A program made the position numbers and the translations under genes. Of a DNA stretch of 64,000 nucleotides, positions 5,906 through 64,000 are shown in pieces. Location of the stretch: sequence record PZ452611.1, one strand, 5' to 3'. Below the pieces are notes generated by a model. It was not told the DNA's origin and made no database searches. It saw only the letters and a list, made by a program, of their open reading frames with translations. How positions within the stretch are numbered: the stretch's first letter is position 1; the number at the start of each line of letters is the position of its first letter. Source of the stretch: a phage.

Positions 5906-6304
5906 ATGAAAACCACTACCTTTAATTTTGATAATGCAGACTTTTCTTTTTCTGATGTCAAGAACTGCCGCCGTGATCGTGGATTTTACAAGGCTTATAA
6001 TCTGGTGGGCCTGGACGATGACAATAATTTGCACGAAGTAGCTGAGATCCGGTATTATGCCGCCGCCAGTGGGAACACTTACTACTGCGTTTTTTGGATA
6101 CACGACAACAAGAACAATAAGTACGGCTATACTGGCGGCAAGGCAAGCGGTCACGGTTATGATAAAGCTAACGCAGCACTTGAGAGCGCATTAAATGCCA
6201 TGGGGATCACTGCCGACGGCTGGATCTACGAAGAAGAGTTTTTGTCGGCACTTGCTGACCACCTAGGCTATAAAAAGCACATTGTAACATGCGCCCACGA
6301 ATAA
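5906..6304 (+). CDS. hypothetical protein
   Basis: 132 aa, AAGAGGA RBS. Confidence 0.55.
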   Translation: MKTTTFNFDNADFSFSDVKNCRRDRGFYKAYNLVGLDDDNNLHEVAEIRYYAAASGNTYYCVFWIHDNKNNKYGYTGGKASGHGYDKANAALESALNAMGITADGWIYEEEFLSALADHLGYKKHIVTCAHE

Positions 6305-10112: not shown

Positions 10113-10484
10113 ATGGAATTTATTATTTTGGCTGTATTGGTTGCCTTGTTTAACGCCTGGATCGCTGGCAAGATGGGCAGATCCGCCTTTTTATGGTTTA
10201 TTATATCTATTTTCCTGGGGGTGGTTGCAACTATTGTATTGGTTATCCTTGCAATTGTTGACAAGGGGAATAATAGAAAGGGTAAAGTATTTTCAGACCT
10301 GTACGACGCTCAAACGTTTGTCAACGCCTATTATAGTGATCTTCCAGTCTCCCTACGCTGCAGCTTGGCACAACAGGTTTTTGATGAGGCTAAAACCAGA
10401 GATCAAGCCCATGAGATATGTTTAACTGAGGCGGATCGCCTATTTGAGAGGAATAGAAAATATGTGGGCCAACCGTTTAAATAA
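10113..10484 (+). CDS. membrane protein (2 TM)
   Basis: internal ATG with AAAAGAGG RBS; two hydrophobic helices. Confidence 0.5.
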   Translation: MEFIILAVLVALFNAWIAGKMGRSAFLWFIISIFLGVVATIVLVILAIVDKGNNRKGKVFSDLYDAQTFVNAYYSDLPVSLRCSLAQQVFDEAKTRDQAHEICLTEADRLFERNRKYVGQPFK

Positions 10485-10707
10485 TGCCACGTTAATTAAT
10501 CCCTTTAGTGAAGATTTGAAGCCAGCCGCCTGGCGTGACGGATTCAATAACGAACGCTTTATTTTCAGGCCTGATCTTGAGGAATTTTATAACAATGGAT
10601 CGAACAACAGCGGAGATAATTTTTCTTGTGGTGTGTGTCGTGATAGGACTCCTGGGGGCCATTGTAGATCGCGTCACTACTACCAGAAGGAAAGGGGGAG
10701 ACGATGA
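10444..10707 (+). CDS. hypothetical protein
   Basis: ORF ending in ATGA overlap with next small gene; true start possibly ATG 10462. Confidence 0.3.
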   Translation: MRGIENMWANRLNNATLINPFSEDLKPAAWRDGFNNERFIFRPDLEEFYNNGSNNSGDNFSCGVCRDRTPGGHCRSRHYYQKERGRR

Positions 10708-14992: not shown

Positions 14993-15412
14993 ATGAACAT
15001 TAAATCTAATAATCCGGCATATAGCTTTGATAACGCTTTTTGTCACGGTCCGGCGGCGAAAGGATTCGAAATCGATGGTAAACTAATTATTGTCAATGTT
15101 GACGGGGAAGAGGTTGCAGTATATCCGGTGGCAGACGTTAAAAGCCGTTTGCAATGCCGCATGGATGTTACCGCCTACCAGCTTGATCCGGTCCGCATAG
15201 TTGCCCTGGTCCTGGAGGAAGAGATCAAAGCCATGCATCATAGCAATAAGTTTATCGGTGACGCGCAAGATAATATGAAGGTATGCCGCTATAAAGTTAA
15301 TGAAGTGCTTAAAGAATACGGCTTCAAAGATCTGATGATCAAGCGTGATGAAAAATTCCGTTATCGTAACGACCTGGCAAATCGAATCTATGAAATATAC
15401 GAATCATTATAA
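14993..15412 (+). CDS. hypothetical protein
   Basis: 139 aa, TAAGAGG RBS; last gene of + early block. Confidence 0.55.
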   Translation: MNIKSNNPAYSFDNAFCHGPAAKGFEIDGKLIIVNVDGEEVAVYPVADVKSRLQCRMDVTAYQLDPVRIVALVLEEEIKAMHHSNKFIGDAQDNMKVCRYKVNEVLKEYGFKDLMIKRDEKFRYRNDLANRIYEIYESL

Positions 15413-15429
15413 TTTCTTAACTAAACTAT

Positions 15430-15459
15430 CAGGGGCTTTAAAAGGCCCCTTTCTTTTGT
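15430..15459 (+). terminator. rho-independent terminator
   Basis: AGGGGC-ttttaaaa-GGCCCCT followed by TTCTTTTG. Confidence 0.7.
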
Positions 15460-16059
15460 CTGTATTTCTCCTACCACAAACGGCCCAGCCTGGCAAGTGG
15501 AATAATTGACTAGCCAGCAATTACCAACACTGTACAAATATACATATAAAATAACTATTGCATAATCTTTCATCTTGTGGTAGCAGGGCCATTTTTACAC
15601 GTTTTCCTTCCAAAATTGCACGTAATGCAGCTATTGCATAAAATTTAACCTGATGCACATCTTCAATAGCTTGTCAACAACTAAAAATCTTTATAAGTCA
15701 TACACTTACATAACCACAAAAGCGTGTTCTACGTGAAAAATCGAGTATAACTATAGCCGCCAGATCTCAGAATTTACGTACGCTCACCATTCTATAGTCT
15801 GCTAAGTATTTATTCCAACCATAGAATAACAGAATAGTCAATACCTGCATAAAATAATTATTCGTGTAAACTGCATAACATAAATCAGCCGGGGTGTCAA
15901 CATTTTTCGTAAACGGCTCGAAATTATCACTGTGAGCTATCATAAACAGAGAAATCTTTAGTCGTCTAATGTTTACTGTACGTTACTATACTAACTGGAA
16001 TCATTAGATGACTAATAAAAAGATAAGAAATCATTAACAATGCAATTGTTTTATTCATA

Positions 16060-16395
16060 ACAATAAGGCAACTATGCAAACGAATGGCATGGCGCGACGG
16101 AGTCGCGACATAATATAAAAGCAGTAACCATCACCCCCGTGATAGTTTGTCTGCAAACTATTAATCAGATCATAGTTGCCTTGTATTTAGTTAATCATGA
16201 CATAAACTCAGGCATAGCCTTCGTCTCGAGGATGTTAACAAGCAAGGCAACTATAGATCTTCTAATAGTTGCCCTGCTTTTATATTATGTCATAGAAACA
16301 CCCGAAGGGGTGACCAAAGGTCACCTGGCATAGCCAGTGAAATATTGTAAACAAGTTAATTATTATCATGCAAACGAATGGCATGGCTTATCATC
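16060..16395. repeat. repeat cluster: TGCAAACGAATGGCATGGC x2 and GGCAACTAT/ATAGTTGCC x4 in alternating orientation
   Basis: read directly; no coding support. Confidence 0.55.
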
Positions 16396-16560
16396 TCTGT
16401 GTAAATAGTTTGTTTGTAAACAGTTTATACGTGAACAGTTAGCTGTGTAAACTATCAGGCATGTAAGCTATTGAGCATGTAAACAGTAAAGGTCGTGAAC
16501 AGTAAGCGAGCGAATAGTAATGGCGTGAACAATGACAGCGTAAACAGTCAGGCATGTCAA
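16395..16560. repeat. iteron-like array, about 9 copies of GTRAAYAGT at 12-17 bp spacing
   Basis: GTAAATAGT, GTAAACAGT, GTGAACAGT, GTAAACTAT, GTAAACAGT, GTGAACAGT, GCGAATAGT, GTGAACAAT, GTAAACAGT. Confidence 0.6.
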
Positions 16561-18016
16561 TTATGTTCAGTGTGTCACCATTATGTCATATTGTGTCAGA
16601 CAAGTTTTTCTCCTCTTTGTCAAGTGCTGCATGAAAAATTTACAATCTGGTATGGTAGCATTTTTGCGGCCCTGTTTACATTCAGTACTGTATGTATAAG
16701 CCTTGTTGTGTGGGCGCTTAGACGTCTAGACGGTTGGAAGTCTGCAGGTCAATATCTAATCTATTGGTTGCTAACTATATCCCACACAAATAGTAAGAAA
16801 TGCAATTGTTATATGCGTAAACTGTAACTCATGTTATCAATCCCTGTATGGATCGCCAGTGGTGCGCATAATAGGTATTATGTTAAATTGCCAGTAATGA
16901 TAACTATTCTCACAGTGATAGGTATTCTCATTCAACCCCACAAGATAGGTTGCAAATGTTGTGCCACTGTGTGAACGGCCTCGCCTATTAATTTGCCTCA
17001 CTGCCTCGATATTTGAGAATTATTATAAGAATGAGAAGTATTCCCATTTCGTCCGCCTGGCAGCACTCCTGTAGGTCAGGTCAAAATCGGGAGAGAACTG
17101 GACCTGTTCAGATATTTCTGGCTGGCTCTTCAGGTCTGTGTGGGAAAAGCCGACCCCTCCGGCGGCGGGGAGGGGGTCAATTAAAAAATTTACGGGGCAT
17201 ATGAAGCGCTCTTCAGGTAAGGCATGTATTATGGGATGAAACCCTCTTCAGGAAATGATATTTGTGGGTGTGATATTTGCTGGAAAGCTAGATATGACTG
17301 GACTCCTGGCGGGGCAGGGGTAGTACAGACAGGGGAAATATGGGGGATGTAGTTGGGTAAATTGATCAGGCAGGTAGAGTATGGAATATGTTACGAGTAT
17401 GTTAAATATGGAGGGTGAATATCTGCAGGATTTGTGTGTAAAATCAAAGACTTAAGTGGTGTTGTGGTATTTTCTATAAATAATTCAAGTTTAATAGGTG
17501 ATATTTGTCCCTATCCACTTTGTGTGGTAAACAGATTCAGATGAGATTGGTTTACGAGTGTATACATAATATACAAATTAAAGATACAAGAAACCCCCCT
17601 CCCCCTTCGGCTACCATTCACCTTTTCCTCTGACTGGTACTTAAACACTTATTCAGACTCTTCAGGTTATCACCCATATATCATATGGCAGTGACTGGTG
17701 TCCTCCGGCCCCTCTTTCGTCACCCGTCCGCTTCGCCATGCTAATGCCATAGCCAATGGTTCGGTTGTTCACCCTGTTCACTCAGGTGTATCTCCATACC
17801 CCTTCAAACCGAAGAGAACAGAAAACCCGAATTACTCGGTAAAAGAAAAGAGAAGAACTTAATTTTATCAGGATAAGCAAGAATGTCAAGGCATGACTGC
17901 TCACTAAACAAGCAAACAGTCATGTGTGGGAGGTAAGTGATTGTGGTGGTAGGAAATTTAGTTGAAAGATGTGTTATAGGTGCTCCCAGCACTTTAGCCG
18001 GGTAGCTAATTGTGTG

Positions 18017-53966: not shown

Positions 53967-54317
53967 TTAGTAGATGTTTTGTTTGATCTCTATTCCAAAC
54001 TTCTTGAATGAGTCAGCAGCAAGCATAAATTTACGAGCTGCCGATGGATTAGAAGTATGCACGAAAATAATCACGTTGTCAATAAGTGGTGGCTTTCCGA
54101 ATACAAGTTTCTCCTCTAGCGCAGAGAAGCAGTCGTACCCTTCAAGAACTTCACCTAGATCATTGTCAAAATACCATTCAGATACGCGTCTGTAGAGCTT
54201 TCTCTTATCATTAAGAAAATCCATAAATTCAGAAGAATTCTTTAGCCACAGAGCGTCTGGGAGTCCATAATCTGACGGATCTCTAAAATCATCAAGCCAC
54301 ACAATCCACTTCTTCAT
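53967..54317 (-). CDS. hypothetical protein
   Basis: start set to internal Met MKKWIVW overlapping RNA ligase stop (track 53967-54389). Confidence 0.4.
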   Translation of the reverse strand: MKKWIVWLDDFRDPSDYGLPDALWLKNSSEFMDFLNDKRKLYRRVSEWYFDNDLGEVLEGYDCFSALEEKLVFGKPPLIDNVIIFVHTSNPSAARKFMLAADSFKKFGIEIKQNIY

Positions 54318-55249
54318 TGCATATAGTCCTCGTTGTGGAAATAGCAGTCCAGTATCTCGCGACGCTCCTGCTCTAATAAGCAATTCCACACATCTTCTGT
54401 ATAGTTGCTACGAATAAATTTTACCATACCGTAAAACTCCTCGTCAACACGTTTAAAAATATCGTCATCCCAAATCTTCCATGCTTTACCTCTCATTACG
54501 GCCTTCCGTGCCAAATAGTATGGAGACTTGATCTTCAGCTGCAGGTCATAAGGGTAGTAAGGCTTACGGATCATATACCCTTCGCCCCTTGTTTCTGCAG
54601 CTAATTCTTTTGCATAGCTGAACGGGATTTCACGCACAGTGTGAGGACGTTTTGCACCAAGGTATTTGGCAATCCCATCTAAAGCTGCTTCTGGTAGCAT
54701 TATTCCAGAATCATTATATCTGCAACCTATCAAATATGCGCCATGGTCTTCTTGAACAATATGCGGATCTGAAGGGTGACAAATTTCAAACATGAATGTC
54801 ATGTTTTCATTGCCCATAACCTTCTTGATAAGATCTAAATCACCACATTGCTCTTGGATGGTTTCCTTTGCAAGGTTACAATATGGAGAATCAAGAGACC
54901 CGGTTGTTGAGAACAATAGGTCACCTTTATGAGATGATACCACACCAAGGAATCCGTTCTTTTTCTCTACCGCAGTAACAAGTTTACTGTCCGGTAGGTT
55001 GGTGGAGTTTTCTCCTAAGTTGAATACTTTTGTGAAAGGCCATGCCACAACATTCCCCTCATTGCCAACAACAATACCTCGGCACTCCAGTAAACGCGGA
55101 GACAAATGCCACAGATTGTTGTAGAATACTTTTCTGGCATATTTATAGATCTTTAATCCAAGATCTGGATAATACCGACTGGTTACAAGACCTTTGTCTA
55201 CTAGGTCATCTGCATTAAAATACTTCATCATACGTTCCTCATTTGTCAT
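54314..55249 (-). CDS. RNA ligase, T4 Rnl1-like
   Basis: LLECRGIVV and KVFNLGEN match T4 Rnl1 (LPDALECRGIMF, KFFNLNEN); nucleotidyltransferase KxNG motif EKKNG. Confidence 0.8.
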   Translation of the reverse strand: MTNEERMMKYFNADDLVDKGLVTSRYYPDLGLKIYKYARKVFYNNLWHLSPRLLECRGIVVGNEGNVVAWPFTKVFNLGENSTNLPDSKLVTAVEKKNGFLGVVSSHKGDLLFSTTGSLDSPYCNLAKETIQEQCGDLDLIKKVMGNENMTFMFEICHPSDPHIVQEDHGAYLIGCRYNDSGIMLPEAALDGIAKYLGAKRPHTVREIPFSYAKELAAETRGEGYMIRKPYYPYDLQLKIKSPYYLARKAVMRGKAWKIWDDDIFKRVDEEFYGMVKFIRSNYTEDVWNCLLEQERREILDCYFHNEDYMQ

Positions 55250-55293
55250 TTTGTCAGTCTATCCTGCCACACAAATAACCTAGTGTCAACACT

Positions 55294-55321
55294 TGAAATT
55301 AACAAAACAGTTAGGTATACT
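55294..55321 (+). promoter_or_regulatory. sigma70-like promoter TTGAAA-N16-TATACT in divergent intergenic region
   Basis: strand switch between Rnl1 (minus) and kinase (plus). Confidence 0.45.
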
Positions 55322-55349
55322 ATCATTAAAATTAAAACGGAGGATTGCT

Positions 55350-55760
55350 ATGTCTAAAATGCTATATATCGTGCGTGGTCTGCCAGGGTCTGGCAAATCA
55401 ACACTGGCAAATGCGCTATCTTTAGAAGGTCTGTATCCACATTTTGAGAACGACATGTTCTGGTATGACGATGACGGCAATTACAACTGGGATGCAAGTA
55501 AAGTAACACTCGCAGCAAAATGGTGCAAAGATAACGTAGAAGATATGATGCGTATGGGATACGACCGTATCGTGGTAAGTAATACGTTTACAAAAGAAAA
55601 ACATGTGCAGGAATATGTTGACATGGCAATCAGTCATGGGTATAGTTATACCGTGATCGTGGTTGAAAACCGCCACGGTAATAAAAGCATTCATGATGTT
55701 CCAGACAAGGTTGTGGATCGTATGGAACGCCAGCTTAAAAACTGCATTAAACTTAAATGA
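55350..55760 (+). CDS. P-loop polynucleotide kinase-like protein
   Basis: LYIVRGLPGSGKST Walker A as in T4 Pnkp kinase domain; start moved to Met after GGAGG (track 55293). Confidence 0.6.
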   Translation: MSKMLYIVRGLPGSGKSTLANALSLEGLYPHFENDMFWYDDDGNYNWDASKVTLAAKWCKDNVEDMMRMGYDRIVVSNTFTKEKHVQEYVDMAISHGYSYTVIVVENRHGNKSIHDVPDKVVDRMERQLKNCIKLK

Positions 55761-55767
55761 GGAATGT

Positions 55768-56322
55768 ATGAAATACTTTGTAACAAGCGACACACACTTT
55801 CTCCACCAGCGGGTCATGGAGTTTGATTCATGTCAAAAACACAGATCTCAGTATGATCACAATCTTGACAGTATGAATGCGGGAATCATCGCCGAGTGGA
55901 ACTCTGTTGTGTCACCTGCAGACACTGTGTTCCACTTGGGAGATATTGCGTGCACTAATGATAAGAATATCAACAAATTACTTCCAGATATTCTAAATAT
56001 GTTGAACGGACATATTATTCTTGTTCGTGGCAACCATGACACAAGGACGACTGTCAGAATTATGAAAGAGTTCTATCACGAGGTTGTAGATTATTACGAG
56101 CTTCGCCACAACAAGAATTTGATCTGTATGAGCCATTACCAATTTGCAAAGTGGAACAGAAAGCCTCACGGATCAGTCCAACTGTTCGGTCATGCTCACG
56201 GAACCACACAACAGTTGTTTGGCAGGCAGCTTGATGTCGGTTGGGATGTGTGGGGGAGACTCTTACCATTAGAAGAGGCATACCGTACTGCAATGAGTTT
56301 TGATATTGACAGCAGGGAGTAA
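55768..56322 (+). CDS. calcineurin-like metallophosphoesterase
   Basis: DTHF, GDIA, VRGNHD motifs; start moved to MKYFVTSD (track 55663). Confidence 0.7.
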   Translation: MKYFVTSDTHFLHQRVMEFDSCQKHRSQYDHNLDSMNAGIIAEWNSVVSPADTVFHLGDIACTNDKNINKLLPDILNMLNGHIILVRGNHDTRTTVRIMKEFYHEVVDYYELRHNKNLICMSHYQFAKWNRKPHGSVQLFGHAHGTTQQLFGRQLDVGWDVWGRLLPLEEAYRTAMSFDIDSRE

Positions 56323-58460: not shown

Positions 58461-58747
58461 GGTTGTTTTCGTGTATCATGATGAATATCCAATTTAAAGA
58501 TGAATTTGATGGCTTTATCTCCGGATGCTTTGAAACAGGGTTCGGAGAAGGCTGAGTTCCCCTTAGAGGGCTTGATAGTGCACCACACTTAAAATGGTAG
58601 GGGCAGCCAGCACATGACGATGTGACCCCAGCCAACCTGTAATAAGGTCGAGCCAAAGTGCGGTAATGGGCTCTGGTAACCCACTTGTTGGGTCTTGCTG
58701 GTCCAGGACGCTGGACAAGTCGCAGGGAATACCACCCTGCGGCGAAC

Positions 58748-58776
58748 TTGACAATCAGTATTTGCTATGATAAAAT
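58748..58776 (+). promoter_or_regulatory. sigma70-like promoter TTGACA-N17-TAAAAT
   Basis: upstream of gene 58805 with RBS GGAGGAAAC. Confidence 0.5.
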
Positions 58777-58804
58777 CCACCTATCACGTGATAATGGAGG
58801 AAAC

Positions 58805-59143
58805 ATGGCGGATACAACTAAAAAGCGTCGCCGTAGAGGCAGACCTCTGAAAGAGGAGTCCAACGCCATTCAGCTAGAGAAGAACATCCTTGATATGAAG
58901 GAATCTTTTATAGCGATGGTTCCAGAAGCTCACAAAGTTTTAAGAGAGCTGATGTTGGACCCGAAAACCAAACAAAATATTCGTCAAAGCATTGCAGAGT
59001 ATGTTCTTGATAAGGCAGACCGAATGCAGGAAGAATATGATGAGATGTTTGGTGAAGAGGAAGAGGTGGTAGTGGAAGAGGCTGAAAAACCAGCACCTTT
59101 TATGCCATTTACTACAGAAATACAGCCTGTTAGCAATAGCTAA
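58805..59143 (+). CDS. hypothetical protein with Lys/Arg-rich N-terminus
   Basis: start at MADTTKKRRRRGRP (track 58685). Confidence 0.5.
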   Translation: MADTTKKRRRRGRPLKEESNAIQLEKNILDMKESFIAMVPEAHKVLRELMLDPKTKQNIRQSIAEYVLDKADRMQEEYDEMFGEEEEVVVEEAEKPAPFMPFTTEIQPVSNS

Positions 59144-59239
59144 AATATTTTCTTGACAAACTTTGCTTAACAGTGTAATATTGTAAACATGGTCTCCCAC
59201 CTTTTCTGGCGGCTAAGGTGTAAAAGAAAGCCACCCAGT

Positions 59240-59314
59240 GCCCTGTTAGCTTAGTGGATAAAGCAGCGGCCTTCTAAGCCGTTGACACTGGTTCGAGTCC
59301 AGTACGGGGTGCCA
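59240..59314 (+). tRNA. tRNA-Arg (anticodon TCT)
   Basis: hand-folded cloverleaf: 7 bp acceptor with two G-U pairs, anticodon loop CTTCTAA, T-loop TTCGAGT, CCA encoded. Confidence 0.75.
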
Positions 59315-59318
59315 AATT

Positions 59319-59405
59319 GGGGAGTTATCCCGTAGAGGTAGCGGTGTAGACTGTAAATCTATTGTCATTGCGACTCGGGTGGTTCGACTCCACCACTCCC
59401 CACCA
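59319..59405 (+). tRNA. tRNA-Tyr (anticodon GTA)
   Basis: perfect 7 bp acceptor GGGGAGT/ACTCCCC, loop CTGTAAA, long variable arm, T-loop TTCGACT, CCA. Confidence 0.8.
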
Positions 59406-59519
59406 AATTTATATTTTTAGATGCATAAATAATACAGATAATGGCATTGATATTTATCGTCGTTTATACTAGTCACTAACTGCTCGAAAATCAGTGTCAT
59501 TATCAGTATAATTTATAAA

Positions 59520-59610
59520 GGAGGGTAGGGAGCAATGGTGCTCAAGCGGTCTTGAAAACCGTCCCGTTGAGGATGACTCGATGATGGTTCGATTCCATTA
59601 CTCTCCGCCA
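59520..59610 (+). tRNA. tRNA-Ser (anticodon TGA)
   Basis: acceptor GGAGGGT/ACTCTCC, loop CTTGAAA, long variable arm, T-loop TTCGATT, CCA. Confidence 0.75.
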
Positions 59611-59708
59611 CATTGTTGACCTTGTAATTAAGCGAAAGCCGGAAGCAGAACCGGATTATCAAATGTTACAGTCGTCATCGCCGACTAGCAACATGGTCAA
59701 CATACTGA

Positions 59709-59805
59709 GCTAGGTAAGCCCTTTGGCAAGGGCGAGGATTTTTAATCCTGAAAATAGACGAGGTAGTCGTTGAATACATAGGTGGTTCGATTCCATCACC
59801 TAGCA
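59709..59805 (+). tRNA. aberrant tRNA-like element (possible tRNA-Lys TTT-like with about 30 nt extra arm)
   Basis: perfect acceptor GCTAGGT/ACCTAGC, canonical D-arm and T-arm (GGTGGTTCGATTCCATC), anticodon-like loop TTTTTAA, but 30 nt insertion between anticodon and T arms. Confidence 0.35.
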
Positions 59806-59812
59806 CCTTTTT

Positions 59813-59888
59813 GCTGATGTAGCACAATCGGTAGTGCAATTGATTTGTAATCAATAGGTTGTAGGTTCAAGTCCTGCCATCAGCACCA
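59813..59888 (+). tRNA. tRNA-Thr (anticodon TGT)
   Basis: acceptor GCTGATG/CATCAGC, loop TTTGTAA, T-loop TTCAAGT, CCA. Confidence 0.8.
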
Positions 59889-59889
59889 A

Positions 59890-59964
59890 GGCCCTGTAGC
59901 TGGAAGGTTCAAGCAAGCGACTCATAATCGCCAGACGGTGGTTCAATTCCACCCAGGGCCACCA
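59890..59964 (+). tRNA. tRNA-Met (anticodon CAT; Ile-lysidine type not excluded)
   Basis: acceptor GGCCCTG/CAGGGCC, loop CTCATAA, T-loop TTCAATT, CCA. Confidence 0.75.
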
Positions 59965-59975
59965 AATAGTAAATA

Positions 59976-60052
59976 CTCCGCGTAGCTCAGCTTGGTAGAG
60001 CGCCTGATTTGGGATCAGGAGGTCGAGTGTTCGAATCACTCCGTGGAGACCA
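59976..60052 (+). tRNA. tRNA-Pro (anticodon TGG)
   Basis: C1-G72 acceptor, D-arm GCTCAGCTTGGTAGAGC, loop TTTGGGA, T-loop TTCGAAT, CCA. Confidence 0.8.
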
Positions 60053-60098
60053 CTTTCAGTTATACTTTAAACATATATAAACAAAAGGAACCTTTAAA

Positions 60099-60368
60099 AT
60101 GTATACACTTAAAATTGTAGAGCGTGTAAATCCAACCCATACCGTAGATTTTCGTGACGATTTCAATCCTCTGGCTGTAAATCTTCGAGAGTCATATCAT
60201 GAACTCAGCTGCGATGCAGTGGTGGTCTTTTTTGAAGACAACTCTGAAGGGGCGGTAGCTTGTGTTGTTGATAGTGAGCAGAAGTTTTATATTTACAGAG
60301 ATGTAGATGCATACTTGATGAATGAAAACGCAGTTACTGTTAGAATCATCCACCGAGTGCCTCGATAA
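60099..60368 (+). CDS. hypothetical protein
   Basis: 89 aa, AAAAGGAAC RBS. Confidence 0.45.
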   Translation: MYTLKIVERVNPTHTVDFRDDFNPLAVNLRESYHELSCDAVVVFFEDNSEGAVACVVDSEQKFYIYRDVDAYLMNENAVTVRIIHRVPR

Positions 60369-60423
60369 GTATTAGTCTCCTTTTAGTTAGTTTCGATCTA
60401 TTTAGGTTACTCAATTTTAACCC

Positions 60424-60457
60424 GCCCCGTTAGCTGTATAGCTGCGGGGTTTTTTCG
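60424..60457 (+). terminator. rho-independent terminator
   Basis: CCCCG...CGGGG hairpin followed by TTTTTT. Confidence 0.7.
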
Positions 60458-60473
60458 TTTCTGGAGCCTTAAA

Positions 60474-60872
60474 ATGATTTCAGGTTTAACATGGCTGAGT
60501 AGGTATAGAGGGATCATAAAAGGTTTAGTTTTTGCAGCGGCTATAGGTACAGCTTATCTTGGGGCCGTGTATTGGTTTAACTCTAAGCTTAATGAAGCCT
60601 ACCAAGAAGGTGTGTTAGCAACAGAGTTGAAGTGGGAACGGATCCTTGATCAGCAACAAAAGCAGGCCGACAAAATTAAAATGGGCCACGCAGAGGAGGT
60701 TAAAAACCTTGAAAAATCCCTTTCTGATCTACAGGATAAATTAAATATAGCTGAGAGGGCAGGTAGAGAAAAGCAGATTATCTACCTCCAATCACCTGAA
60801 GGTAAGAAGTCAACACTTCCTGATCAGCTTATAGATATTTATAATGAGAGTATCAATCAGGAGGATCGATGA
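60474..60872 (+). CDS. i-spanin (Rz-like), putative
   Basis: N-terminal TM helix then coiled-coil domain; overlaps downstream lipoprotein gene. Confidence 0.55.
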   Translation: MISGLTWLSRYRGIIKGLVFAAAIGTAYLGAVYWFNSKLNEAYQEGVLATELKWERILDQQQKQADKIKMGHAEEVKNLEKSLSDLQDKLNIAERAGREKQIIYLQSPEGKKSTLPDQLIDIYNESINQEDR

Positions 60873-61156
60873 GAGTTGCCACACTGTTTATTGCGTGCTT
60901 GTTATTATGTGGGTGTGCAACCAGCGTTGAGAGAGAATACAAGATTGACCCTCCGGATGTAGGAAGGTTGATTGTTAAACCCCCAGAAGGTGCCATGAAA
61001 CCACCTGCTAAAGCTATGCCTTTGAAGAAAGGTGCGCCAGATGCAGTGAATTCTGGCATTATGAGGGATAATAATCTGTCTTGTAGCAATGATAGAGCTA
61101 AATTGATCATTTTGCAAGACTATATTAGAACACTGTTTCCAAAGGAGAGAGGTTAA
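60869..61156 (+). CDS. o-spanin (Rz1-like outer-membrane lipoprotein), putative
   Basis: lipobox LLLCGCA, Pro-rich periplasmic segment. Confidence 0.6.
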   Translation: MRVATLFIACLLLCGCATSVEREYKIDPPDVGRLIVKPPEGAMKPPAKAMPLKKGAPDAVNSGIMRDNNLSCSNDRAKLIILQDYIRTLFPKERG

Positions 61157-61584
61157 TGTCTAAGATTTACGGACCGTGTTCTGAAAAGCAGAAGATGATC
61201 CTCGAAAACGATGCAGATATCTTGGTAATCGGCGGTGCAGCAGGGTCTGGCAAGTCGTTCCTCTTGCAGTTGATGCCACTTAAAATTATTGATGACCCCC
61301 ACAGCTCTGTGGTTATGTTCCGAAGAACAACCCCACAGTTGGAAGGTGAGGGTGGGCTATGGCCTAAAGCAGTAGCTATTTATAGTGATCTGCCTGAAAA
61401 CATTAAGCCAAAGTTTAGAGAGAAGGATCATAAGTTCATTTTTCCACGGTTTGATCCGAACACTGGCAAGTGGGATAGAAGCAAAAAGGGAGCTGTTGTA
61501 AAATACTGCCACATGGAGTATGTACAAGATAAGCTTAACCATCAGGGGCTTGAGTACACCATGGTTTGCTTCGATGAGGGTTAA
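61156..61584 (+). CDS. terminase large subunit, exon 1 (ATPase N-terminus)
   Basis: Walker A GGAAGSGKS, Walker B-like CFDE; frame closes at TAA inside putative intron. Confidence 0.6.
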   Translation: MSKIYGPCSEKQKMILENDADILVIGGAAGSGKSFLLQLMPLKIIDDPHSSVVMFRRTTPQLEGEGGLWPKAVAIYSDLPENIKPKFREKDHKFIFPRFDPNTGKWDRSKKGAVVKYCHMEYVQDKLNHQGLEYTMVCFDEG

Positions 61585-61587
61585 TTT

Positions 61588-61920
61588 GTAGCTCTCGTAA
61601 AACCTCCCTAATTGCGGGGAAATCTTTATTATTGACACCACCAACCTGTTATGGTAACATAATAGAGGCTTCGAAGAGAGATCGAAGGTATGGTAACAGT
61701 GTGTTAATTTAGATAATCCGCAGCGAAGCATCCGAGAGGATGAACGTTCAACGACTAGTCGAAAGACGTAGAATCAAGCGATTCGAAACGGGAGGGTAAG
61801 CGATTGTTGTCGCTTATAAGATATAGTCTGGTCTGCATGGAGACATGCAGCTGCCTGAGAATGGCGGGGCAAGACTAGCGACCTTGCCTGAACATAAACG
61901 ACACAATTCGAATGGGAGCA
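61588..61920 (+). mobile_element. group-I-like intron 1 (no ORF), boundaries approximate
   Basis: ORF-free insert between terminase frames; shares AATTGCGGGGAAATC and ATAGTCTGGTCTGCATGGAGACATGCAGC blocks with second insert. Confidence 0.5.
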
Positions 61921-61933
61921 GATAGACTATCTG

Positions 61934-62221
61934 ATGTCTCGTCTGCGATCTCAGTCAAAGTATCCATCAAGAATGGTTATCAGCTGTAACCCTGATTCAG
62001 AACACATGCTTGCCAAACTGGTTAGATGGTGGTTGGATGATGAAGGGTATCCAGATCCGGAGAAATGCGGTAAGAAAAGATATTTTATCCGACGCGACGG
62101 TGAATTTATTTGGGGAGACTCTAAGGAAGAGTTGATAGAGAAATACACCACGGTTAACGGACTGGGTGTAGAGATCAAGCCAAGACCGTTGTCATTCTCG
62201 TTCATAGGCGCAACCATTAAA
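61934..62221 (+). CDS. terminase large subunit, exon 2 (approximate)
   Basis: short reading frame (open from about 61898) between the two inserts; assigned by position, no terminase motif recognised in this segment. Confidence 0.45.
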
Positions 62222-62224
62222 TGA

Positions 62225-63194
62225 TAGTGGCTTCGTGCAGAAATGCACGTCGAATAACTTCGTTAATTGCTGGGAAATCCGATTGCTAAACGGACAATCA
62301 GCAGCTATAATTACCCTTCCGAACCTGTAGTAGGGAGATGTTTGAAATGAAAAATTTAGGCTTTTTAGGCTACAATCATTATTGTGCTACATACGATGGC
62401 AGAATTTACAGTCTGTATTCTAATAAATTCCTCCATCCTAATGTGCAGAAAAAGACTGGCTATGCTATGGTAACTTTGTGCGAGGACGGTAAAAAGTTCC
62501 AAGTGCTCGTTCACAGAGTGATTGCTATGACTTTTGTTGATAATGACAATCCCAGCGTGAAAACTCAAGTAAACCACCTAGATGGTAATAAGTTGAATAA
62601 CGCCGCATGGAACCTTGAGTGGACAACGCCTGAGGAAAACACACATCACGCTCATGAAATGGGACTTAAAAAGGACTATGTCAATAAATACAGGTCCCTG
62701 GATGATGCCACCGCTCTTGAAATATGTAGGCTGTTAGAGCAAGGCGCAAGGGTAAAAGACATTTGTGAAATGTTTGGTGTCAATCAACCACTTGTAAGTG
62801 GTATAAAGAATGGCTCAGTATACCCAGATATTTCTAAAGAGTTTAACTTTAGAAAAGTGCCAACCTCTAATCGGATAAGTGAGCACAAGATAATAGGTAT
62901 CTGCGAGGATCTTAGTGATAAGGTCTTGTGTGTAAATAAAATAGCTAAGAAGTGGGGAGTAAGTTTTAGTGTTGTTAAAGGAATAAAAGACCGTAAGACT
63001 TACACCTATATTTCAAACAATTACGATTGGTAATGTAGTTCAACGACTATCCTGAGAGGGAGTAGGGCGCAAGCTTATGGCGCTCGAAAAGCGAAGCACC
63101 CTGAAATGGGTGGTGATATAGTCTACTCTGCATGGTAACATGCAGCAGCACGTAAAGGTGCGGAAGGTGGTGTTGCGACCACCTTTGAATATAA
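62225..63194 (+). mobile_element. group-I-like intron 2 carrying HNH homing endonuclease, boundaries approximate
   Basis: conserved blocks shared with intron 1 (TTAATTGCTGGGAAATCC; ATAGTCTACTCTGCATGGTAACATGCAGC at 63118-63146); internal free-standing ORF. Confidence 0.55.
62338..63033 (+). CDS. HNH homing endonuclease (HNH_3 with C-terminal NUMOD/HTH-like repeats)
   Basis: VHRVIAMTF...NHLDGNKLNNAAWNLEWTTPEEN HNH motif. Confidence 0.85.
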   Translation: MFEMKNLGFLGYNHYCATYDGRIYSLYSNKFLHPNVQKKTGYAMVTLCEDGKKFQVLVHRVIAMTFVDNDNPSVKTQVNHLDGNKLNNAAWNLEWTTPEENTHHAHEMGLKKDYVNKYRSLDDATALEICRLLEQGARVKDICEMFGVNQPLVSGIKNGSVYPDISKEFNFRKVPTSNRISEHKIIGICEDLSDKVLCVNKIAKKWGVSFSVVKGIKDRKTYTYISNNYDW

Positions 63195-64000
63195 GGATTC
63201 GATAATCCTGTCTGCTTAAGAGACAACCCAGAATACCTTGCTTTTCTTGAAGGTCTGCCCGAGCTTGAAAAAGCCCAGCTTCTTCATGGCAACTGGTTTG
63301 CAAAGCCTGAGGGTGCAAACTATTTTCAAAGATCTTTCCTTCGTGATGCCGATAGAGTACCCCTTGGATCAGTATCTTGCAGGGCATGGGATAAGGCAGG
63401 AACCGAGAGAACTTCCGGTAATAAATTTCCTGACTTTACCGCCAGTATTAAGGTAAGTAAAGATAGCGACGGCTTTTATTACCTGTCCGGTGATTATTGT
63501 CCTGAGAACGTGGATGACGGGAGGTATTCCACAGGTCTGGAAGGCAAGTTCTGTAAAAAGGCTGGTGAACGAGATGTGATCATCAGGAAACAGGCGCAGT
63601 TTGATGGTGATGATTGTATAATCGTATTCTCTGTGGACCCTGGTCAGGCAGGTAAGAGTGAGTTCTTAACCTCATCCAGATCCTTGCTCGCCGAAGGGTT
63701 CAGGGTTGAAGAAGACCCAATGCCTTCCAACAAATCTAAACTGACAAGGTTCTCACCTTTTGCCAATCTTGCACAACAAGGAATGGTGAGGATTGTAAAA
63801 TCCAGTTTCCATCCTGATACTCTGGAAGCATTTCTGACTGAACTTGAAAAATTCAACGGGGAAAGATCAACATTTAACAGAAAAGACGACTGGGCCGACT
63901 GTGTAGCTTCTGCGATTAATTTCCTGGAGAAAGAGGAGGTAGCACTTCCTTGTGTGATTCCATCAATCTCATCACCTTCTATGTTCAAGCGTTTTATCTA
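63195..64000 (+). CDS. terminase large subunit, exon 3 (nuclease domain), truncated at window end
   Basis: open frame without ATG: LLHGNWF..., VFSVDPGQAGK..., RKDDWADCVASAINF typical of terminase nuclease domain; not in ORF track because no start codon. Confidence 0.65.

Follow-up and report, generated by a model that had tools for sequence, protein, structure and literature searches.

Phage tRNAs act against immune systems that cleave tRNA, among them PARIS, OLD, retron Eco7 and PrrC, and the counter-defence phage tRNAs known to us are all near-canonical. Here we analyse a tRNA-like element in a window of 64,000 nucleotides (the whole stretch of DNA under study), which is the reverse strand of Escherichia phage rV5 (V5), NC_011041.1; a record position equals 122028 minus the window position. 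rV5-type phages are widely isolated, and they are used as therapeutic and biocontrol phages. The element comprises 97 bases at 59709–59805 of the plus strand and lies within a co-oriented phage tRNA operon. It is not an ordinary tRNA, and it may have a role in the contest between phage and host over tRNAs.

The T5-type counter-defence tRNAs, such as tRNA-Lys(UUU) against AriB of PARIS (PMC11464382, PMC12409363), are likewise phage-encoded and located in a tRNA cluster, and the rV5 copy of the element shares with them UUU, A73 and a protective C41. AriB cuts tRNA-Lys between positions 40 and 41 of U36AAUC/A41 (the slash marks the cut), and the change A41C strongly inhibits it (PMC12409363). A phage tRNA-Thr(UGU) resists P2 OLD through loss of the 27:43 pair and a changed CNG motif (PMC12445682, a study that screened a library of 245 coliphage tRNAs); in the element, too, the 27:43 pair is missing. 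An anticodon-loop-mutation hypothesis has also been put forward for phage tRNAs (PMC10264068). However, the counter-defence phage tRNAs are otherwise canonical, measure 75–77 nt and keep their anticodon among relatives, whereas the element has a 31-nt insertion, swapped positions 8 and 14, an incomplete CCA and a loop that varies between genera.

T4 species 1 and 2 (rnaC and rnaD) are also small phage RNAs of unknown function at the end of a tRNA cluster, and rnaC shows a tRNA-like T arm, GGG-UUCGAAU-CCC. Unlike the element, they are about 120–140 nt long and have no full cloverleaf with an anticodon-type arm. The covariance model of the element family, R1, gave no match at T4 70908–71171, which holds rnaC and rnaD; its only T4 matches, of about 24 bits, were to tRNA-Thr and tRNA-Leu.

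Class II tRNAs (Leu, Ser, Tyr), tRNA-Sec and allo-tRNAs (PMC5389517) share with the element a long arm between the anticodon and T arms. In addition, tRNA-Sec has UCA, as in the Henunavirus-type loops of the element, and allo-tRNAs have unexpected anticodons and are possibly regulatory. In the element, however, the extra hairpin is flanked by 7–8 and 9–10 unpaired conserved nucleotides, compared with 1–2 in these tRNAs. Its acceptor/T geometry is 7/5 with a D stem of 4 bp, while tRNA-Sec and allo-tRNAs have 8/5, 8/4 or 9/3 and tRNA-Sec a D stem of 6 bp. The Rfam tRNA-Sec model matched tRNA-Ser and tRNA-Tyr but not the element. Compared with E. coli tRNA-Ser, the element has C2-G71 instead of G2-C71, and its discriminator is A, U or C, never G73; A73 alone would be compatible with tRNA-Leu or tRNA-Tyr. 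ARAGORN found no tmRNA, and the 3:70 pair of the element is U-A, not G3·U70.

The YrlA Y RNAs (PMC4201824) and the Bacillus cereus tRNA-Other (PMC3399842) are tRNA-shaped RNAs that undergo tRNA-like processing and modification and do not decode. YrlA carries its tRNA-like module inside a Ro-binding stem, with no free acceptor end, and tRNA-Other is chromosomal and of normal length. The YrlA model RF02553 did not match the element; its sole weak match lay elsewhere, at 59917–60029, with 25 bits versus 69. Phage tRNAs that are aberrant or resist nucleases have precedents, and so do stable tRNA-like RNAs within the tRNA clusters of phages. New to the literature searched is the combination, throughout a subfamily, of a 7/5 cloverleaf, a 4-bp anticodon stem, linkers that are conserved around an exchangeable arm, and a loop that drifts or is re-targeted.

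Fold of the element and its departures from tRNA

The initial annotation, made from the sequence alone, described a tRNA-like element with a 7-bp acceptor stem, a T arm, a TTTTTAA loop, an insertion of about 30 nt holding a hairpin, and a 3′ end with only CC. All of these are present (Table 1). The D arm, which it called canonical, is so in stem and loop but not at positions 8 (A), 14 (U), 15 (U) and 48 (A), and the anticodon stem of "4–5 bp" consists of four Watson-Crick pairs, the fifth being a G·G mismatch. Structure-based prediction accepts the element as a tRNA: ARAGORN called a "tRNA-???" at 59709–59807, and in a permissive search the Rfam tRNA model RF00005 scored 35.5 bits (gathering score 29, E = 3.4e-5); its alignment places 26 inserted nt in the variable region and deletes position 27. 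With default filters, Rfam did not report orthologues in other genera at the gathering threshold. In the permissive scan of 58500–60800 the element was matched by the tRNA clan only, and by no ribozyme, riboswitch, tmRNA or Y RNA. The minimum free energy (MFE) fold (−34.2 kcal/mol, z = −4.09) consists of the cloverleaf and the extra hairpin, and none of 200 shuffles was as stable.

The 7-bp acceptor stem, the 4-bp D stem with G18 G19 and the 5-bp T stem with its UUCRANY loop are those of a canonical tRNA and are supported by covariation. In place of U8/A14 and R15:Y48, the family has invariant A8, U14, U15 and A48; A8/U14 looks like a swapped 8:14 pair. In place of a 5-bp anticodon stem, all members have four Watson-Crick pairs and a G·G mismatch at 27:43, found in 23 of 23 aligned orthologues. 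The variable region of tRNAs has 4–5 nt in class I, and in class II forms an arm of 10–24 nt with short flanks. That of the element falls outside both classes, with 31 nt in rV5 (59750–59780, between the anticodon-type stem and the T stem and holding the extra hairpin) and 39–40 nt in other clades, and with conserved single-stranded flanks of 7–10 nt. The loop has the shape of an anticodon loop (7 nt, U33, purine 37) in rV5 and Avunavirus but not in Seuna/Mydovirus or the Henunavirus group, and the anticodon varies. The family thus has three conserved departures from tRNA, namely the 4-pair anticodon-type stem with its G·G, the insertion of about 30 nt at the junction of stem and core, and the swapped 8/14.

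The last five bases of the 3′ linker, ACAUA, could serve as a normal 5-nt variable loop, with A44 opposite G26 and A48 opposite U15; the remainder would therefore be an insertion at the 43/44 junction. The insertion of about 25 nt might also be intron-like, to be excised from a pre-tRNA whose halves are rejoined by Rnl1, kinase and phosphoesterase into a normal tRNA of 72–76 nt. We give this hardly any credence. Excision of 59751–59775 would give the variable loop ACAUA, and genes for an RNA ligase (Rnl1, gp078), a kinase-like ATPase (gp077) and a phosphoesterase (gp076) are located at about 54314–56322, 3.4–5.4 kb upstream of the element. However, no endonuclease, bulge-helix-bulge motif or ribozyme signature was present in the Rfam search, we know of no such splicing in bacteria or phages, and excision would leave the aberrant loops of other clades unrepaired. 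The link that had been drawn between the element and this RNA-repair module is also weak. Rnl1 homologues were found across 663 phage records; these cover many unrelated groups, among them Justusliebigvirus and KP2025-type phages, which lack the element. Because Rnl1 is so widespread, the co-occurrence is not specific, and the RNA-repair genes show only that such phages expect anticodon-nuclease attack.

Table 1. Parts of the element and flanking signals in the window
Feature	Coordinates	Strand	Remarks
Acceptor stem, 5′ strand GCUAGGU, positions 1–7	59709–59715	+	7/7 Watson-Crick with 59798–59804; compensatory changes in 4/7 pairs across 23 orthologues
A8, A9	59716–59717	+	Canonical tRNAs have U at 8; A8 and U14 invariant in 23/23 aligned orthologues
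D arm GCCC/GGGC with 8-nt loop UUUGGCAA containing G18 G19	59718–59733	+	Compensatory changes in 3/4 stem pairs
G26 (or G27, mismatched with G at 59750)	59734	+	G invariant on both sides of the anticodon-type stem; Rfam alignment deletes position 27
Anticodon-type hairpin AGGA-UUUUUAA-UCCU, 4-bp stem, 7-nt loop	59735–59749	+	
5′ linker GAAAAUAG (G, then AAAA)	59750–59757	+	GAAAA invariant in 23 aligned sequences
Extra (variable-region) hairpin ACGA-GGUAG-UCGU	59758–59770	+	Part of MFE fold; extendable to 5 pairs by G·U 59757:59771
3′ linker UGAAUACAUA	59771–59780	+	AUACAUA part invariant across the whole family (24/24)
T arm GGUGG-UUCGAUU-CCAUC, one G·U pair	59781–59797	+	All cells pair; one compensatory pair, one G·U/G-C alternation
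Acceptor stem, 3′ strand ACCUAGC	59798–59804	+	
Discriminator A73 and C74 C75	59805–59807	+	Next base U
UUUUU spacer 3′ of the element	59808–59812	+	tRNA-Thr(UGU) begins at 59813
Sigma-70-type promoter of the tRNA operon, TTGACA-17-TAATAT	59153–59181	+	P(tRNA) annotation in NC_011041 and consensus scan

Within the anticodon-type loop, U33 is at 59740, the anticodon UUU at 59741–59743 and A37 at 59744. A76 is not encoded, since the ACC runs straight into UUUUU.

Distribution and conservation of the family

BLAST with the rV5 element returned 129 phage records, nearly all Vequintavirus, at 97–100% identity. With a Seunavirus orthologue as query, 189 records were obtained in Vequintavirus, Avunavirus, Seunavirus, Mydovirus and Henunavirus, with hosts in Escherichia, Salmonella, Klebsiella, Cronobacter, Erwinia, Enterobacter and Proteus. 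Pattern scans gave further copies from IMG/VR and metagenome contigs, including the divergent L034/L043, L040 and L051. The comparison of orthologous loci thus rests on 24 distinct sequences, one copy per genome, all from Vequintavirinae-type phages, and all stems are supported by covariation. No copy was found in 185,579 bacterial species genomes, in a scan that used one genome per bacterial and archaeal species.

R1 was built from 23 of the 24 sequences; the remaining one, the outlier L051, has GUAAAA instead of GAAAA in its 5′ linker. Scores under the model were at least 99 bits for all members and no higher than 28 bits for ordinary tRNAs, and the model found exactly one copy per genome. 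Neither Klebsiella phage KP2025 nor Justusliebigvirus Bas62 has the family RNA in its tRNA region; KP2025 is a close relative of the metagenomic contig L034, which does have the element. Besides five chance matches in coding sequence, a pattern for the 5′ half brought up L051 as a new divergent member, and a pattern of arm loop plus linker gave chance matches only in viral and bacterial collections.

In the 23-sequence alignment, standard pairs are formed in 460 of 460 cells of the 20 pairs tested, and 10 of these pairs show two-sided changes. The covariation score was 0.437; shuffles gave 0.168, and sliding the partners gave no more than 0.111. The elbow pair 19:56 also covaries, being G19-C56 in 15 sequences and U19-A56 in 8, and this argues for a true L-shaped fold. 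Three of the four pairs of the anticodon-type stem were among those tested and are always paired; the alignment columns of the fourth depend on the clade, and its pairing was taken from the parsed sequences themselves.

All members have the extra hairpin, in a sequence and length that depend on the clade. It has 4–5 bp and a 5-nt loop in Vequintavirus and Avunavirus, with a compensatory change from A-U to G-C in Avunavirus, and assorted stems of 5–7 bp in some Seuna/Mydovirus sequences. In Hena1, NDO71, FENT2, L018, L034 and L051 a stem of 3–5 bp carries a conserved loop of 12–13 nt, GAAYUAACAGUA(C); the three core pairs of the arm in this clade are 100% paired, and two of them covary. Pairing of the linkers and loops was considered as well. 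An antisense-seed role of the linkers was rejected, as complements of AAUACAUAGG and CCUGAAAAUAG are not enriched in the window: with up to one mismatch there were 5 and 4 matches (one of each being the element itself), against 4.6 and 1.75 expected. The flanks of ten loci with the arm loop GAACUAACAGUAC, a few kb per locus, contained no complementary 8-mers or longer. Kissing between the anticodon loop and the arm loop was likewise dismissed on inspection; the UCCA/UGGA complementarity of GAP31-type sequences is absent from those with the GAACUAACAGUAC loop.

Between genera, the core of the element (loop and arm excluded) shows an identity of 0.76–0.97, compared with 0.56–0.91 for tRNA-Thr(UGU) in the same genome pairs, and it is the more conserved of the two in 15 of 21 pairs. 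The element is kept as a single copy across several genera whose tRNAs otherwise differ by 20–40%. Its body is therefore under purifying selection at least as strong as that on a neighbouring true tRNA. The proposal of a tRNA with an extra arm, or of a tRNA-derived RNA, has been borne out to the extent that the element is a conserved, structurally constrained, single-copy gene.

A decaying, functionless tRNA pseudogene, also considered in the initial annotation, is left with next to no probability. Some observations might be taken in its favor: the original rV5 annotation omits the element, pipelines disagree on it (Lys, OTHER, TERM), orthologues are missed by default Rfam, and one phage, V18, has a deletion in it. 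Yet stem pairing is 100% with many compensatory changes, and the copy is retained singly. The covariation effectively refutes decay, and because core identity mostly exceeds that of tRNA-Thr, with full stem pairing, the pseudogene is excluded.

The natural deletion in V18 (L007 851–947) leaves only the 3′-terminal 47 nt of the element, joined to the 5′ half of tRNA-Tyr. The deleted stretch spans the 3′ half of tRNA-Tyr, tRNA-Ser, the structured spacer RNA described below and the 5′ part of the element. V18 is viable with this deletion, and therefore without all those parts.

Existing records treat the element inconsistently. It is absent from the six tRNAs listed in the original rV5 paper and in the RefSeq record. 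The sequence in Bas55 and other BASEL phages is identical to that of rV5 and is labelled tRNA-Lys (AAA), and tRNA-Lys is also the label in some records outside that collection, while the label is tRNA-OTHER (Asp|Gly) in Murica, tRNA-Stop(tta) in JLBYU08 and tRNA-sup(tca) for the Hena1 orthologue; several records annotate small hypothetical ORFs across it. Eighteen MG0656xx records of "Campylobacter phage" (C15, D1, A12a and others) have a tRNA region 99–100% identical to that of rV5-type coliphages, and these labels probably reflect mislabelling or contamination.

Anticodon-like loops and discriminator bases

The loop and the 3′ end differ by clade. Vequintavirus has UUUUUAA with A73 and ACC(U), and Avunavirus has UUUAUAA with U73 or C73 and an "ACA" end. 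Seuna/Mydovirus has a 6-nt loop CNNCCA (CAUCCA, CCACCA, CCUCCA, CAGCCA, CUUCCA) with U73-CCA. Henunavirus and metagenomic relatives have (C/U/A)AUCAA(A/G), in which A replaces U33, also with U73-CCA. In seven Seuna/Mydo sequences the two middle loop positions show three alleles each and four dinucleotides, and the only other difference outside the extra arm (columns 48–74) is one G·U change. We do not claim positive selection on these two positions, since absent constraint explains the variation equally well.

The Seuna/Mydo phages also encode canonical tRNA-Gly(UCC) and tRNA-Lys(UUU). Because the loops vary and these canonical tRNAs coexist with the element, ordinary decoding cannot be the common function of the family. 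The discriminator, however, tracks the loop in two clades. The identity set of E. coli GlyRS comprises NCC, U73, G1-C72 and C2-G71, and the identity elements of LysRS are U35, U36 and A73. In the family, NCC occurs with U73, G1-C72 and C2-G71, and UUU occurs with A73. This match of loop and discriminator hints that synthetases, or proteins that read both ends of a tRNA, matter.

It is very improbable that the element is a recoding tRNA, that is, an opal suppressor (UCA) in the Henunavirus group or a frameshifter by means of the 6- or 8-nt loops of Seuna/Mydovirus. The labels tRNA-sup(tca) and tRNA-Stop(tta) are of this kind. The loop of E. coli tRNA-Sec is CUUCAAA, and the Henunavirus loop CAUCAAA differs from it at position 33 alone. 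An amber-suppressor-like tRNA(CUA) also occurs in related phages. Against recoding, the Henunavirus-group and Seuna/Mydovirus loops lack U33 and the rV5 anticodon is a sense one (Lys). Moreover, the anticodon differs among genera, even between near-identical sequences, so no conserved recoding target is possible.

Other unusual tRNAs were seen near the orthologues. The tRNA just upstream of the element in Mydo/Seunavirus (L010 331–405; L026 5383–5457, minus strand; L039 3313–3387; L006 1119–1194) has a conserved body and an abnormal anticodon loop, which is the 6-nt ACGAUA in Mydo-type phages and ACGAUUC, with neither U33 nor purine 37, in KE22. The PVP-SE1-like contig L024 has, at 5994–6079 on the minus strand, an 86-nt tRNA where relatives have tRNA-Lys(UUU). 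It retains a perfect Lys anticodon arm, UCCGA-CUUUUAA-UCGGA, with about 10 extra nt between the D and anticodon arms, and ARAGORN reports it as tRNA-???(ggca). The CUA-anticodon tRNA is found at L034 7862–7934 and in KP2025 (L067) at 10437–10508; ARAGORN calls it tRNA-Pyl and the record tRNA-Sup-CTA.

A possible tRNA-Lys stand-in or tRNA mimic

The rV5 clade has the most tRNA-like loop of the family (7 nt, U33, UUU, A37) together with discriminator A; UUU and A73 are combined in the Vequintavirus genus only. The rV5 clade and Avunavirus also have the shortest extra arm. None of the six other tRNAs of rV5 is a tRNA-Lys, and rV5 alone among the genomes examined lacks a canonical phage tRNA-Lys(UUU). 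Av-05 (tRNA-Lys UUU at L069 4736–4812), Mydo-like phages and Hena1 have a tRNA-Lys and a non-Lys loop in the element; the UUU anticodon was assigned by ARAGORN for Av-05 and the Mydo-like contigs, while the two tRNA-Lys of Hena1 are annotated without an anticodon. The assignment of the element to tRNA-Lys holds for the rV5 genus, which has UUU with A73, and fails elsewhere; rV5 itself encodes no other tRNA-Lys. Lys decoding cannot be the family function, because orthologues carry UAU, UCA-type or 6-nt loops. At the AriB site the element reads U36AAUC/C41, with A41C present and U39 unchanged.

The reading that we tentatively favor, at somewhat less than an even chance, is that of a tRNA-derived RNA family with an anticodon-independent ancestral role, of which the rV5 copy has been co-opted as a nuclease-hardened stand-in for tRNA-Lys(UUU). 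The stand-in is proposed because rV5 has the Lys-type loop with A73 and no canonical tRNA-Lys(UUU). The ancestral function would be exerted through the tRNA-shaped body, the linkers and the arm, with no codon reading. The RNA would be released by RNase P and by exonucleolytic trimming of its 3′ end, and in rV5 it would be completed to CCA by the host CCA-adding enzyme. Both the loop (U33-UUU-A37) and A73 would have turned tRNA-Lys-like in rV5. LysRS may then charge the RNA, allowing AAA and AAG to be decoded, or the RNA may at least occupy Lys-tRNA-specific enzymes. The short stem, C41 and the bulky arm may make it a poor substrate for nucleases of tRNA-Lys such as PrrC, RloC and AriB of PARIS.

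Several points weigh against this reading. The rV5 element ends in an incomplete CCA (ACC-U), although all six neighbouring tRNAs encode theirs. Its core is unlike that of every elongator tRNA (A8/U14, U15/A48, a 4-bp stem, a 31-nt variable region), and the linkers and arm, needless for a plain Lys tRNA, are still conserved in rV5. LysRS, as a class II enzyme, docks on the variable-loop side of its tRNA, so the extra arm could block charging. In Avunavirus, UAU with U73 or C73 and the "ACA" end fits no E. coli identity set; given this incoherent identity, the A/U-rich loops of the rV5/Avunavirus clade could have arisen by drift, not adaptation, in an AT-rich genome. V18 is viable without the 5′ half of the element, although the same deletion also took two true tRNAs. 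The loss of tRNA-Lys and gain of a Lys loop is a single evolutionary event. Finally, literature searches found no description of the element, no transcriptome of an rV5-type phage, and no data on its expression, processing or charging in any phage.

A close rival, which we rate only slightly lower and also below even, is that the RNA is a non-decoding tRNA mimic in all clades, rV5 included. It would be processed like a tRNA and bind a protein able to recognise the shape of tRNA, most plausibly a defence nuclease or toxin of the host that targets tRNA and that the mimic would titrate or inhibit; a decoy for a tRNA nuclease was also among the readings of the initial annotation. A tRNA-processing or tRNA-modifying enzyme, of phage or host, is another possible partner. 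The rV5 loop would in that case be Lys-like through mimicry of the nuclease target or through AT-biased drift. Conservation is indeed found in the acceptor, T and D "top half" and the linkers, not in the anticodon, and in most clades the loop could not present a normal anticodon, having only 6 nt in Seuna/Mydovirus and A33 for U33 in the Henunavirus group. The element is surplus to decoding in clades with canonical tRNA-Gly and tRNA-Lys, the rV5 and Avunavirus clades have an imperfect CCA, and the neighbouring conserved-body tRNAs with the loops ACGAUA and ACGAUUC suggest a recurring theme. It was also suggested that overexpressed viral tRNAs might inhibit AriB by competition (PMC12409363). 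On the other side, the binding partner is purely hypothetical, and a decoy acting stoichiometrically on a catalytic nuclease demands tight binding or high copy number. The loop-matched discriminators of two clades point to recognition by synthetases, i.e. to charging, and the Lys loop occurs, among the genomes examined, only in rV5, also the sole genome without a phage tRNA-Lys.

A more specific form of this idea appears doubtful to us, namely an undescribed, Vequintavirinae-specific mimic with a fixed body and a scaffold of linkers and arm, on which the loop and the arm tip are exchangeable "heads", and whose loop is retuned, host by host, to whichever tRNA matters there. Its role would be non-translational; it might, for example, bind tightly to immune nucleases or toxins that attack tRNA, as their decoy or inhibitor, or be an aminoacylated ligand that does not decode.

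The tRNA operon and other features of the window

By ARAGORN, the order of the operon is tRNA-Arg(UCU), Tyr(GUA), Ser(UGA), the element, Thr(UGU), a CAU tRNA (Met or Ile2) and Pro(UGG). The consensus scan gave a second promoter-like site at 59484–59512. If RNase P cleaves tRNA-Thr at its 5′ end, 7 nt would remain on the element as a trailer. In most clades the gap to the CCA of the preceding tRNA is only 2 nt, and the rV5 element lies directly 3′ of a conserved structured spacer.

This arrangement invites the explanation that the element serves processing or stability only, as punctuation for RNase P or RNase E or as a protective end for neighbouring RNAs such as the spacer RNA, with no function as a free molecule. 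A polycistronic tRNA operon, the 2-nt gap and the structured spacer upstream in rV5 would suit such a role. We nevertheless consider it improbable. An acceptor/T minihelix would suffice for punctuation, and the flanking true tRNAs already supply RNase P sites. The invariant linkers, the constant extra hairpin, the GAAYUAACAGUA loop, the 19:56 covariation and the encoded U73-CCA would all be left unexplained.

The spacer between tRNA-Ser and the element is itself a second conserved structured RNA of about 90 nt (59614–59703, plus strand). Its 8-bp closing stem is UGUUGACC/GGUCAACA in rV5, and GAGGAUC/GAUCC(U)UC and GGAUCAUG/CAUGAUUC in divergent Vequintavirus-like contigs, with three compensatory pairs. 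It holds two conserved inner hairpins (MFE z = −2.85) and has no Rfam match. On the other side of the element, tRNA-Thr(UGU) at 59813–59888 has the anticodon arm AUUGA-UUUGUAA-UCAAU, which contains exactly the sequence U36AAUC/A41 that AriB recognises and cuts in the tRNA-Lys and tRNA-Thr of the host (PMC12409363). Unlike the tRNAs of T5, this tRNA looks unhardened against AriB.

Two further regions of the window were observed. About 15410–18015 there are 2.6 kb without an annotated gene in NC_011041, between convergent gene blocks, with 34–39% GC and no long ORFs. Iteron-like GTAAAC(W)(R)T repeats with 16-nt spacing occur at 16431–16487, and further copies and several inverted repeats are found in the region, which has no Rfam match; it is a candidate replication origin. 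At about 61156–64000 (plus strand), the gene for the large subunit of terminase is annotated as three joined pieces with an HNH endonuclease gene in one of the gaps, which suggests interruptions of the intron or intein type.

Implications

The R1 model could clean up the annotation of well over 100 public genomes, in which the current labels are missing or inconsistent (tRNA-Lys, tRNA-OTHER, tRNA-Stop). If true, the present readings would extend phage-tRNA counter-defence, either by a re-engineered, nuclease-proof tRNA-Lys or by a tRNA mimic that does not decode. The outcome would reveal which parts of a tRNA can change without loss of function.

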